Of a stretch of 64,000 bases of DNA, positions 5,637-39,281 are shown one piece after another. Made by a program: the position numbers and the translations under genes. Each line of letters opens with the position of its first letter. The stretch's first letter is position 1. The stretch comes from Escherichia phage AV124, in sequence record OR352954, one strand, 5' to 3'. The notes under the pieces are model-generated. The model saw only the letters and a list, made by a program, of their open reading frames with translations. It did not search any database and was not told where the DNA came from.

Positions 5637-6314
5637 ATGAAAGAAGCTTATGATACTCTGAATGCTATGCTGCGCCCAACCTCTCTTGTTAAGTATGCGA
5701 AACATGTTGTAGATTGGAATTCTATCGCAGCCTCTGCAAAGGGTGAATTTACCCCATTGGAAAAGCAGTGGGAGTTTGTAGGAGAGGAGTTACAAGAAAC
5801 CGTTACAGCATTAATCGAAAATGACCGTAAGGAAGTTGTTGATGGAGCGTGTGATTTGTTTGTTGTGGCGTCGTATGCTTATTGGTTGAGTAATAACTAT
5901 TCGCTATCCTCAGATAAATATTTAACTTATAATCCTGACCTTAAGTTTTCTCCTGGTAAAGCTTTGGATGCTTTTGCGAATGATGACTATGAGGGGATGC
6001 TTAAATTGAGCACAGCTTTGTTGTTTGGTCTTGATATGCAATTGCATAAGAACATGCATAGCGTTCTGGAATCTAATGATTCTAAATATCCAACACTTAG
6101 TGAAATTCAGTCTTTGCATAAAGACCTTGACTTGGCAAAAGCCCTTGAGGCAGAATGCACCTGTATCGAACAGCGTAATGGTGGACGCTATGAAGGTGTT
6201 CATTTCTCCATTGTTGATGAGAATATGAAAGAAGAGCCACGTGTCGTATTCTTCGACAAAGGCGGTAAAATCATGAAGCCAGGGACTTTCAAAAAACCAA
6301 ACATTATTGTTTGA
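5637..6314 (+). CDS. hypothetical protein, possibly MazG-like NTP pyrophosphohydrolase
   Basis: EFVGEELQE ... DGACDLFVV resembles MazG EExxE/D motifs; weak. Confidence 0.3.
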   Translation: MKEAYDTLNAMLRPTSLVKYAKHVVDWNSIAASAKGEFTPLEKQWEFVGEELQETVTALIENDRKEVVDGACDLFVVASYAYWLSNNYSLSSDKYLTYNPDLKFSPGKALDAFANDDYEGMLKLSTALLFGLDMQLHKNMHSVLESNDSKYPTLSEIQSLHKDLDLAKALEAECTCIEQRNGGRYEGVHFSIVDENMKEEPRVVFFDKGGKIMKPGTFKKPNIIV

Positions 6315-6339
6315 CAATCGTATCGGGGTCTGTATAATG
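6312..6339 (+). promoter_or_regulatory. sigma70-type promoter (TTGACA-N16-TATAAT)
   Basis: Perfect consensus hexamers. Confidence 0.55.
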
Positions 6340-37009: not shown

Positions 37010-37489
37010 ATGTTTCAAAAGATTGTACGTGAACACCCTATCCTTCGAGAGCACTGGCATACTCTGCTGGAAAAGGGTTTTATAGAAAACTCAAAAGGTT
37101 GCATCGCTCTCGTAAGGGAGCCTGTGACAGAAGAACGAGTTCTCGTCATAAGGGATGCCAAAAACGGCATCCTTTTTTCTATCAAAGTTGGTCGTCTGGA
37201 CGTCACTAGGGGTTCAAATACCATAAGACCAACAACTTACACTTTTCGTGTTGGAGACATGGGGAAGCTCTATCCAGAACATCTGGAAGAGGCCTTTGAT
37301 AGTTATGAAGGGTTCGAAGCCTCTATTCGTGATCTCTATAGATCGTTGGATAGGATTATCAGTGAACACAAGAAAACGCTAGGTGTAAAATACCGAGTAA
37401 AAGACTGGTTCAGAAATTCCAATAACCGCTGGTTTCTCCTAGCGGCAGTTCTCTACGGCCTGTTGACGGTATTTCTGACCTTGCACTAA
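37010..37489 (+). CDS. hypothetical protein with C-terminal TM helix
   Basis: AGGAGG RBS; hydrophobic C-terminus. Confidence 0.45.
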   Translation: MFQKIVREHPILREHWHTLLEKGFIENSKGCIALVREPVTEERVLVIRDAKNGILFSIKVGRLDVTRGSNTIRPTTYTFRVGDMGKLYPEHLEEAFDSYEGFEASIRDLYRSLDRIISEHKKTLGVKYRVKDWFRNSNNRWFLLAAVLYGLLTVFLTLH

Positions 37490-37501
37490 GAGGAGATTCT
37501 T

Positions 37502-37876
37502 ATGAGAGATCGTCAGGAGTATTATCGTCAGTATGCCGCCCGTCGTCGTGAGATTGATCGTCAGCGGCGTTCTACACCAGAAGGTAAAGCAGAACAACTT
37601 CGTATCCGTCTTGCCCGTATTGAAGCAGAGAAACGCGCTACCCTTCATAGTGAGTGGGATGAGTTTGTCAGGGATGAGGCTGATCACTTGTGTTCTGTTC
37701 GTTGTGAAGATACTGGTATCAAGTGGGAACCAGACCACATGCTACCACTAAGGGCAACCAAAGTATCCGGCCTTAACTGTGGTGATAATATACAGGTGAT
37801 ACCTGCAACTCTCAACAGGAAGAAGAAAAACCGTATGATTTATACCGAAATGAATGAATGGTTGAAAGATGTATAG
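37502..37876 (+). CDS. HNH endonuclease
   Basis: C..C...WEPDHMLPL...GDNIQVIPATLNRKK HNH-like motif. Confidence 0.5.
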   Translation: MRDRQEYYRQYAARRREIDRQRRSTPEGKAEQLRIRLARIEAEKRATLHSEWDEFVRDEADHLCSVRCEDTGIKWEPDHMLPLRATKVSGLNCGDNIQVIPATLNRKKKNRMIYTEMNEWLKDV

Positions 37877-37909
37877 AAAAAACCCGGCGATTGCCGGTTT
37901 TTTTTTTAT
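37877..37909. terminator. bidirectional rho-independent terminator
   Basis: A6-cccggc-gatt-gccgg-T10; plus-strand genes end to the left, minus-strand genes to the right. Confidence 0.65.
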
Positions 37910-38202
37910 TGACCTTTGGATAGCTTTTCTATCACGAGATGGTCTGAATCATCCAGGTGCATCAGGTGATCAACTCGGATATCATGCAGGTATGGGAGTC
38001 CATCAACGTGGCAAAGAAACCATGATTCGTGACGAGGATAATATCCATTTACACCGAGAACGGTCTTCTCCAGCACAAGACAACGTTTACCGTTAAGGAT
38101 ATTATTCTCCGAGAATCCATACAACAGGCAGATTGAATCAACACAAACCTTATGGTCTGGCTCATTACGATCAGGCATACCACTATCTTCTAATTTCAGC
38201 AT
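37906..38202 (-). CDS. hypothetical protein (opposite-strand cassette, gene 2)
   Basis: ATGCTGA start/stop overlap with upstream minus-strand ORF. Confidence 0.4.
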   Translation of the reverse strand: MLKLEDSGMPDRNEPDHKVCVDSICLLYGFSENNILNGKRCLVLEKTVLGVNGYYPRHESWFLCHVDGLPYLHDIRVDHLMHLDDSDHLVIEKLSKGQ

Positions 38203-38435
38203 TTTTTATCTCCAAAGTTAAGTTCGCCATTCAACTTTTGTACACGGTGCGGGAGAATTTCCTGCCACCACCAATCCTTCTCATGAAGACGATAAGACAC
38301 ATAGACCTCTACGGTATCCTCGTCCTTACGGACAGTCCTGGTATAGATATCCCGAATGGTTGCTTCGAATTGACCGTCAACAAGGACGACCTCGTAAATT
38401 TTGTACTTGTCTTGTTCAAGAATTTGTTCTGACAT
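38196..38435 (-). CDS. hypothetical protein (opposite-strand cassette, gene 1)
   Basis: AGGAGAT RBS before ATG on minus strand. Confidence 0.4.
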   Translation of the reverse strand: MSEQILEQDKYKIYEVVLVDGQFEATIRDIYTRTVRKDEDTVEVYVSYRLHEKDWWWQEILPHRVQKLNGELNFGDKKC

Positions 38436-38642
38436 TTTATCTCCTATTTGATTCTTTTTCCACCATGTTTTTCATAGATGGAGATGACTTTTTCTAAGTC
38501 TAGCACAGAAACGGTCTCGACAAACTCCACTCATCCTGTTCAAGCTCTTCTGCACAAGTAACACCGAAATCACTATAGTTCAAAATCAACCTCCTCTAAA
38601 GTCTGTACGGGGAGTATACCAACAAATTTGGTATCAATCAAC

Positions 38643-38672
38643 TGTTGACACGACCTCTTTTTCTGTCATAAT
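38643..38672 (+). promoter_or_regulatory. sigma70-type promoter (TTGACA + ATAAT-like -10)
   Basis: Consensus -35; resumes rightward transcription. Confidence 0.4.
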
Positions 38673-38842
38673 GCCAAGAAAAACAATTTCAGAGGAGAAA
38701 TCCTTGAGCATATTGTCAAAGCTGTCACCAACAACCAGAAAAAGAGAGACCAGTTTGAGAGAGGCTCATTAAATCGGGCAGTGATGACAGTGGCTATCGA
38801 TGAGCTTTTGTATGTTGGAGATTTCATAATGAAGAGGGGCGC

Positions 38843-38995
38843 ATGAAAAAATTCTGCGTCTATGGGTGGGTGAGCGTTGACAACGGCTGGTATTTGTGCA
38901 AATCTAGTGTCAGTGAAGACGAGCTTGCCAAGTTGCTGGACTACTACCGTAAAACTTGGCGTTATGTTAAGGGGATTTCTTACAATGAATAAATT
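38843..38995 (+). CDS. small protein
   Basis: 50-aa ORF not in track; ATGAATAA overlap with next gene. Confidence 0.3.
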
Positions 38996-39281
38996 TAGGC
39001 TAAAATGTCAGGGTGGGCGATGGTGGGTTCAGGAAAAGTTCTTTGGATTCATGTGGCTAACCATTTGGAATTCCTCTTTGACGAAAGAAAGTGCAATGGC
39101 AAAGATTGCAGAGCACGTTCAGGAAAAGGAGGATGAGTGCATTTACTATCCAACACAGGAAGAGATTATCTCCGCAGTCTCTGCTAAAATGGTGCGACCA
39201 AGTACACCTCCCTCTCCACCAGCAGACTACTCTTTAAAAAGGAGACAGATATGTTCGAATGGTTTAAGCGAAGAAAGCTAA
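38985..39281 (+). CDS. hypothetical protein
   Basis: Internal ATG of track ORF 38877..39281. Confidence 0.4.
   Translation: MNKFRLKCQGGRWWVQEKFFGFMWLTIWNSSLTKESAMAKIAEHVQEKEDECIYYPTQEEIISAVSAKMVRPSTPPSPPADYSLKRRQICSNGLSEES

Follow-up and report, generated by a model that had tools for sequence, protein, structure and literature searches.

The Inverted Two-Gene Unit

The sequence record of Escherichia phage AV124 (OR352954) contains a small unit of two overlapping leftward genes, which encode proteins of 79 and 98 amino acids (aa) and lie within a block of rightward genes. The unit was analysed in a stretch of 64,000 nucleotides (nt) of this record, referred to here as the window. Over the region, the DNA is 93–94% identical to that of Mydovirus phages of the Vequintavirinae (among them Proteus phage Mydo and Klebsiella phages KpS8, KB57, BIS47, and KPP-1), and, as judged from its sequence, the source of the window is a Mydovirus-like phage of this subfamily. 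In the window, the large open reading frames (ORFs) are rightward as far as ~45 kb, and the nearest large minus-strand ORFs start beyond 45 kb. The 79-aa and 98-aa genes form an inverted island within the rightward block of small genes.

The 79-aa gene (38196–38435, minus strand; phrog_16965) starts with ATG and encodes an acidic protein (isoelectric point (pI), 5.1) with a predicted Tudor/chromo-like barrel. The 98-aa gene (37906–38202, minus strand; phrog_13562) also starts with ATG, and its acidic product (pI 5.5) is predicted to be a KOW/SH3-like five-stranded barrel. The two reading frames share 7 nt (38196–38202; TCAGCAT on the plus strand, ATGCTGA on the minus strand), in which the 98-aa gene begins and the 79-aa gene ends. 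Read from this arrangement, the 98-aa gene is translationally coupled to the 79-aa gene. Each start is preceded at 5–6 nt by a Shine-Dalgarno sequence (79-aa gene, AGGAGA; 98-aa gene, GGAGA). In comparison with five relatives, the ratio of nonsynonymous to synonymous substitution (dN/dS) of both ORFs is 0.05–0.16, which indicates purifying selection, and the long plus-strand shadow ORFs that overlap the pair are interrupted by stop codons in phage Mydo. The two minus-strand ORFs are thus real genes.

Predicted Terminator and Divergent Promoters

The left boundary of the unit is a bidirectional intrinsic terminator predicted on both strands (37877–37907; AAAAAACCCGGCGATTGCCGGTTTTTTTTTT), built as A6-CCGGC-GATT-GCCGG-T10. 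The folding energy is -14.3 kcal/mol for the plus strand (z-score, -4.3) and -12.1 kcal/mol for the minus strand (z-score, -3.4), and none of 200 shuffled sequences folds as well. The element would end both the upstream rightward operon and the leftward unit. Its counterpart is annotated as two terminators in Mydo and likewise in PVP-SE1, and the metagenomic loci L020 and L017 have hairpin terminators at the equivalent place.

On the right, two predicted promoters diverge. The rightward σ70-type promoter (38645–38672, plus strand) consists of TTGACA, a 16-nt spacer, and a TG-extended CATAAT, matching the consensus at 11 of 12 positions plus the TG. Two sites of this near-consensus type occur in the window, against 0.04 expected. 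The sole other perfect TTGACA-N16/17-YATAAT site lies at 6311–6338 on the plus strand (TTGACA...TGTATAAT) and is presumably another strong early promoter. The leftward σ70-type promoter (38613–38641, minus strand) has its -35 element, TTGATT, at 38641–38636, a 17-nt spacer, and a TG-extended -10 element, TATACT, at 38618–38613; 9 of 12 positions plus the TG match, and leftward transcription would start near 38606. The two -35 elements stand back to back within the palindrome TCAAC-T-GTTGA (38638–38648). A divergent promoter core of ~119 bp is alignable across 13 phages of three genera, in which its position is kept, and the same promoter pair was annotated by the depositors of PVP-SE1 (GU070616).

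These results bear out most of the anatomy proposed in the preliminary description of this DNA. That description recognised the overlapping, coupled minus-strand ORFs, which are supported by their coordinates, the ATGCTGA overlap, the Shine-Dalgarno sequences, and dN/dS. Its bidirectional terminator is predicted on both strands with folding far beyond shuffled controls, and its consensus TTGACA promoter, said to restart rightward transcription, is located by sequence match at 38645–38672. The leftward partner promoter was absent from its account. With a promoter on its own side and a shared bidirectional terminator, the locus is indeed the self-contained, inversely oriented unit that had been claimed.

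Distribution across Related Phages

The 98-aa protein is encoded in all 30 Mydovirus-type records found, at 93–97% aa identity. The 79-aa protein is 79–97% identical over its full length in these 30 records; the copy of Raoultella phage Ro1 is cut to 68 aa. Elsewhere, the 98-aa family occurs at 34–59% identity in the Seunaviruses PVP-SE1 (gp173), 4MG, GAP31, SSE121, FENT2, and EspYZU15, and in the Henunavirus group of Erwinia phages. The family is narrow, with ~11 genuine clusters when 1.8 billion representative proteins were searched exhaustively with its profile. The phages that carry the 98-aa gene infect Klebsiella, Salmonella, Cronobacter, Enterobacter, Escherichia, and Erwinia.

The setting of the 98-aa gene is constant. 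In every genome inspected, including the divergent metagenomic contigs L017, L019, and L020, it is antiparallel to its neighbours and adjoins a convergent terminator, with a divergent promoter region upstream. The interval between the promoter and the 98-aa gene varies: it is empty in PVP-SE1, EspYZU15, L019, and L020, holds a 79–82-aa homologue of the 79-aa gene in Mydovirus, 4MG, GAP31, and FENT2, and is occupied by an unrelated phrog_4049 gene in the Erwinia phages and by a 62-aa gene in L017. The 79-aa gene is not found in PVP-SE1, SSE121, EspYZU15, or the Erwinia phages. Members of its family stand alone and co-directional with their neighbours in Klebsiella phages of the Stephanstirmvirinae (KP13-16 and 05F01) and in other contigs. 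The neighbourhoods of the distant relatives, both of the 79-aa protein (KP13-16, 05F01, and L024–L026) and of the 98-aa protein (L017, L019, and L020), contain no informative neighbours.

Phage rV5 (Vequintavirus; L014, 3501–7432) has no inverted unit 3′ of its homologue of the 159-aa gene that lies upstream of the unit in the window, and its genes there are all unidirectional. The inverted unit is therefore limited to the Seunavirus/Mydovirus/Henunavirus side of the subfamily. This distribution across relatives indicates that the unit is old and conserved in the clade and that its genes are no obligate pair. By the same sequence comparisons, the 98-aa gene is shown to be the constant core of the unit.

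Content beyond the divergent promoter varies as well. In 4MG, GAP31, Ro1, the Erwinia phages, and the metagenomic contig L020, the first gene is one of ~363–384 aa, which is missing from the window, Mydo, and KpS8. It was assigned to phrog_6077 (function unknown) in 4MG only and recognised by size and position in the others. The promoter core is thus a hot spot, with content that varies on either side.

Gene Remnants around the Promoter Core

The preliminary description regarded the ~400 bp to the right of the pair as non-coding. The stretch (38436–38842; 407 bp) indeed has no intact gene; in addition to the divergent promoters, BLAST comparison with the loci of relatives places two gene remnants in it, one on either side of the conserved promoter core, namely an endonuclease relic and a truncated rightward gene.

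The first remnant is a frameshifted relic of ~140 nt (38444–38583, minus strand) from a putative T5orf172-like homing-endonuclease gene with CapR/DUF723 zinc fingers. Phage KPP-1 has an intact homologue of 546 aa on the minus strand; the window matches its 3′ end at 38436–38518, its 5′ end at 38513–38583, and, continuing from the gene, the KPP-1 upstream promoter region at 38584–38702. The relic retains the TTG start and 23 N-terminal codons (LNYSDFGVTCAEELEQDEWSLSRP) from 38583 down to ~38513, to which the last 25 codons (...TETVSVLDLEKVISIYEKHGGKRIK*), from 38518 down to 38444, are fused out of frame. The two parts meet at a microhomology of 5 nt (AGACC), and the ~1.5 kb between them is missing. 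A ribosome-binding site, GAGGAGG (38596–38590), and the TTG start leave a residual ORF of 27 codons just 5′ of the 79-aa gene, which may be translated as a leader peptide.

The endonuclease assignment comes from the homologues. The 546-aa KPP-1 protein matches CapR (2.2e-34) and DUF723 (1.3e-9), and the FENT2 protein matches CapR (6e-51). In the KPP-1 and KP12 homologues, the C-terminal ~100 aa match T5orf172 (E 0.04–0.07), MUG113 (0.0012–0.12), and GIY-YIG (0.0065), all below the curated cut-offs. In addition, phrog_681, an annotated endonuclease family, matches the FENT2 and SSE121 genes at 1e-86. The domain layout of the KPP-1 protein corresponds to the published one of T5orf172-type homing endonucleases (PMC10448857).

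The relic occupies a slot just 3′ of the leftward promoter whose content differs among relatives. The slot is empty in Mydo and KpS8. It holds the 546-aa CapR/DUF723 gene in KPP-1, a 321-aa minus-strand ORF with CapR domains in KP12, a 354-aa gene annotated as an endonuclease in Iguana_ER37, a 295-aa minus-strand ORF in P8734, and CapR endonuclease genes in the Seunaviruses FENT2 and SSE121. A different insertion is seen in Ro1 (L005, 1717–2797), where a 195-aa HNH gene (Pfam HNH_3, phrog_99) separates the homologues of the 79-aa and 98-aa genes; it overlaps the two and reduces the former to its 68 aa.

The relic DNA is 81–85% identical to that of FENT2 and SSE121, and the adjoining 98-aa gene is too diverged for DNA matching. 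A sliding comparison revealed a similar pattern at the start of the 79-aa gene. Its first 60–80 nt are 92–98% identical to endonuclease-carrying phages, including the Seunavirus FENT2, and 60–75% identical to the endonuclease-free Mydo and KpS8. Against the latter two phages, the rest of the pair is mostly 90–100% identical, with 82–90% in a few stretches. Since identity over the first ~70 nt of the 79-aa gene tracks endonuclease status, these nucleotides are read as a co-conversion tract from homing. Judging from the tract, the endonuclease may target the leader or the 5′ end of the 79-aa gene, or a site close to them. As these sequence comparisons show, the promoter-proximal position is a homing-endonuclease landing site, which in the window holds a decayed copy next to the co-converted 5′ end of the 79-aa gene. 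According to published work, CapR/T5orf172 homing endonucleases sit near boundaries of genetic exchange between phages (PMC10448857).

The second remnant (38691–38846, plus strand) was recognised by sequence comparison as a 5′-truncated 68-aa gene, homologous to Mydo gp105 and KPP-1 KPP_11871. The start codon and 16 codons were lost by deletion between a pair of perfect 12-nt direct repeats (AGAGGAGAAATC), one in the ribosome-binding region of the gene and the other internal, and no in-frame start codon is left in the remnant. KP12 lacks the gene entirely, so it appears dispensable.

Predicted Folds of the Two Proteins

Sequence searches place both proteins among uncharacterised phage proteins. 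The 79-aa and 98-aa proteins have no match in Pfam, PADLOC, or NCBIfam, and the PHROG families that they do match are of unknown function. When 13 members of the 98-aa family were scanned singly against Pfam, none gave a match, including to KOW, Tudor, and CarD_TRCF_RID. Word-indexed and exhaustive profile searches returned unannotated phage relatives only, profile searches against the sequences of the Protein Data Bank (PDB) were not significant, and a fold search of BFVD returned uncharacterised viral proteins only. Profile-profile comparison of the two families gave a probability of 0.1%, and no paralogy between them is detectable.

A link of the 98-aa family to the YDG domain was considered and rejected. 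Giant bacterial surface proteins with repeated YDG domains gave weak summed matches to the family profile (E 4.5e-7 to 1.5e-4), with no Pfam YDG match in return, and these matches are probably noise at the level of a motif (YGF...LNG).

AlphaFold2 (AF2) models built from the family alignments give a five-stranded SH3-like barrel for both proteins, with a predicted local distance difference test score (pLDDT) of 79.7 for the 98-aa protein and 74.5 for the 79-aa protein. Hundreds of SH3-like chains score alike against the models, and for this reason only the fold class is supported. An N-terminal G-x-PDRN-x-x-D motif is invariant in the 98-aa family, and a conserved LDDSD marks the start of a C-terminal helix. 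The members of this family are acidic, as are the proteins of the phage relatives that carry the pair, with pI values of 4.3–5.9; the low pI favours protein binding over general nucleic-acid binding. SH3-like barrels in bacteria typically bind RNA polymerase, ribosomal proteins, or proteases.

Flanking Genes

Two rightward genes precede the unit. The 159-aa gene (37010–37489), with homologues in rV5-like phages at 31–34% identity, is assigned to phrog_7821, a family annotated as virion structural. It is followed by a 124-aa gene (37502–37876) that matches phrog_1035 (endonuclease VII; E 1.4e-19) and no Pfam family; its stop codon (37874–37876) lies at the terminator. Beyond the promoters, the 49-aa gene (38843–38992, plus strand; phrog_2381) is the first intact gene of the restarted rightward block. 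An Rfam scan of 37400–39200 gave nothing near gathering score and only weak terminator-like leader matches.

Four records (OY757067.1, OY978796.1, OY978784.1, and OY979426.1) carry features under the match that are labelled tail tape measure, minor head protein, tail fibre, and the like, and are flagged as partial pseudogenes. The annotation of these records appears to be out of register with their sequence, as such labels misfit a region of small genes.

Proposed Model and Alternative Explanations

Taken together, the locus is interpreted as a conserved autonomous transcription unit of Mydovirus/Seunavirus/Henunavirus-type phages, which is expressed early and whose barrels act on host machinery. 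The anatomical and evolutionary part of this picture is held with high confidence, while the picture as a whole is regarded as probable by a modest measure. In this model, a σ70-type promoter, back to back with the promoter of the rightward block, would drive leftward transcription through the promoter-proximal slot, the 79-aa gene, and then the coupled 98-aa gene, and transcription would stop at the bidirectional terminator that also closes the upstream rightward operon. The roles given to the promoters and the terminator come from sequence and conservation.

The history of the window can be reconstructed along the same lines. A phage ancestor would have gained a CapR/DUF723 (T5orf172-like) endonuclease gene in the slot, with the first ~70 nt of the 79-aa gene co-converted along with it. 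Later, a microhomology-mediated deletion would have removed ~1.5 kb of the endonuclease gene, and a second deletion, by slippage beyond the promoter core, would have decapitated the first rightward gene. At the level of sequence comparison, the relatives show the acquisition, the co-conversion, and both deletions.

The functional part of the model is more tentative. Host RNA polymerase would transcribe the unit early from its σ70-type promoter, and the two barrels would act independently as small protein-binding factors that dock on host machinery. Such independent early host-protein-binding factors are the best guess for function, offered with low confidence on the strength of the predicted folds. 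A literature search found nothing usable on transcripts or functions of these genes in Vequintavirinae.

Several points weigh against this picture. The leftward promoter is only a moderate match in the window, and early timing is read only from σ70-like promoter sequences. The AF2 models were built on shallow alignments of 13 and 18 sequences, and for the 79-aa protein pLDDT exceeds 70 in only two of five models. The nuclease domain of the endonuclease homologues is seen only below Pfam thresholds.

A more specific version of the model can be envisaged, in which the 98-aa protein is a free-standing mimic of the KOW domain of NusG/Spt5. Its PDRN motif and C-terminal helix would compete for Rho, ribosomal protein S10, or RNA polymerase and reprogram termination or transcription-translation coupling early in infection, with the 79-aa protein as a second, optional adaptor. 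This version is speculative and rated as quite improbable.

The preliminary description offered three readings of the pair: an anti-defence cassette, a toxin-antitoxin-like pair, or a recently acquired moron. According to the first, one or both small acidic proteins inhibit host immunity from an accessory locus beside a recombination hot spot. This reading is unlikely, although it is the best placed of the alternatives. It agrees with the small size and acidity of the proteins and their probable early expression from their own promoter, with the patchiness of the 79-aa gene, which the Seunaviruses and Erwinia phages named above lack and another subfamily has, and with the turnover of the adjoining slot through homing endonucleases. 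However, the 98-aa gene is fixed in position under strong purifying selection across six host genera, which fits a core function better than a host-specific counter-defence, and no named family was matched, with two PHROG families of unknown function and uncharacterised viral proteins as the only hits. A further possibility is that the products are small proteins of the virion or of its assembly, for instance accessories of the neck or decoration proteins, and that the inversion reflects a different temporal class. The neighbouring 159-aa gene, with its PHROG annotation as a virion structural protein, points in this direction. Yet the unit lies outside the structural module, its σ70-consensus promoter architecture is common to the flanking small-gene blocks, and the match to a neck protein is one among hundreds of SH3-like matches of similar score, which leaves this explanation improbable.

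The other two readings fare worse. A type II toxin-antitoxin-like pair, with a toxin from one of the coupled genes and a neutralising protein from the other, would account for two small adjacent, overlapping genes with a single promoter region and terminator and with a palindromic promoter region nearby. No toxin, antitoxin, or defence profile in Pfam, PADLOC, or NCBIfam matches, though, and no toxin family or fold (MazF/CcdB, RelE, VapC, HipA, and others) was recognised. Structure prediction goes as far as a barrel fold for both proteins and indicates no toxin or antitoxin fold, nor is there a match to a DNA-binding family (helix-turn-helix, ribbon-helix-helix, or AbrB). Moreover, each gene occurs without the other, the 98-aa gene in PVP-SE1, EspYZU15, L019, and L020 and the 79-aa gene in KP13-16 and 05F01, and the HNH endonuclease gene parts the two in Ro1. 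The toxin-antitoxin reading is thus very improbable. Least credible of all is the reading as a recently acquired moron, in which a foreign cassette, complete with promoter and terminator, landed in the rightward block. The inversion of the unit and its own promoter and terminator would suit such an origin, and its absence from rV5 implies a gain or loss at some deep node. Against a recent insertion, comparison with related genomes found the pair constant in Mydovirus (30 of 30 records) and not patchy among close relatives, and the inverted, terminator-adjacent 98-aa gene recurs at this position in Seunavirus and Henunavirus and in distant metagenomic relatives. Base composition is likewise unremarkable: the guanine-plus-cytosine (GC) content of the unit is 0.40–0.43 versus 0.43–0.49 in the flanks, and its coding-strand GC skew equals that of the rest of the genome, flipping only with the coding strand. 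The promoter is also one half of a conserved divergent pair whose other half would serve the main block. The early, conserved unit whose products would bind host proteins remains the favoured interpretation.

Significance

What looked like a foreign cassette becomes a conserved core unit in a group of phages widely isolated for therapy against Klebsiella, Salmonella, and Cronobacter. The odd gap of 400 bp is explained as the footprint of a homing-endonuclease life cycle of invasion, co-conversion, and decay. The strict position of a narrow family in inverted orientation suggests a non-trivial early function, and endonuclease-carrying and endonuclease-free Mydovirus phages (KPP-1 versus Mydo or KpS8) provide a convenient natural system for the study of CapR/T5orf172-type homing. 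The region is mostly of local interest. Dozens of deposited genomes already list its genes as hypothetical proteins, its architecture is standard phage genome punctuation, and the endonuclease relic and the co-conversion tract, though a clean case, follow known dynamics as expected. The strict inverted, terminator-adjacent placement of a very narrow protein family is mildly surprising.

Comparison with Known Systems

The unit resembles type II toxin-antitoxin operons in having two small overlapping genes by a palindromic promoter region. Unlike these operons, it shows no family or fold match and no obligate co-occurrence of its genes, and both products are acidic barrels. Among SH3-like proteins, the NusG/Spt5 KOW domain, CarD, the Mfd RID, and the C-terminal domain of PcrA/UvrD have no sequence similarity to the 79-aa and 98-aa proteins, and no Pfam KOW or CarD match was obtained. 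In contrast to the KOW domain of NusG/Spt5 and to Tudor-like RNA-polymerase-interacting domains, the phage proteins are acidic single-domain proteins without NGN or another partner domain, and the 98-aa family has features of its own in the PDRN motif at the N terminus and the helix at the C terminus.

ICP1-like and T5-like phages have homing endonuclease genes of the T5orf172 type, whose products bind DNA through CapR/DUF723 zinc fingers (PMC10448857, PMC8096241). The slot homologues of KPP-1, KP12, FENT2, and SSE121 likewise carry CapR, and that of KPP-1 also DUF723. As in those systems, the slot gene is present or absent among near-identical phages, with a co-conversion tract in the adjoining gene. 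The window differs in retaining only the ~140-nt frameshifted relic, and in the homologues the similarity to T5orf172, MUG113, and GIY-YIG stays under the thresholds.

The closest counterpart of the unit is gene 173 of PVP-SE1 (GU070616), a 98-aa homologue with back-to-back promoters upstream and two overlapping rho-independent terminators downstream. In PVP-SE1, the 98-aa homologue stands alone, whereas the window adds the 79-aa gene and the endonuclease relic to the same framework.

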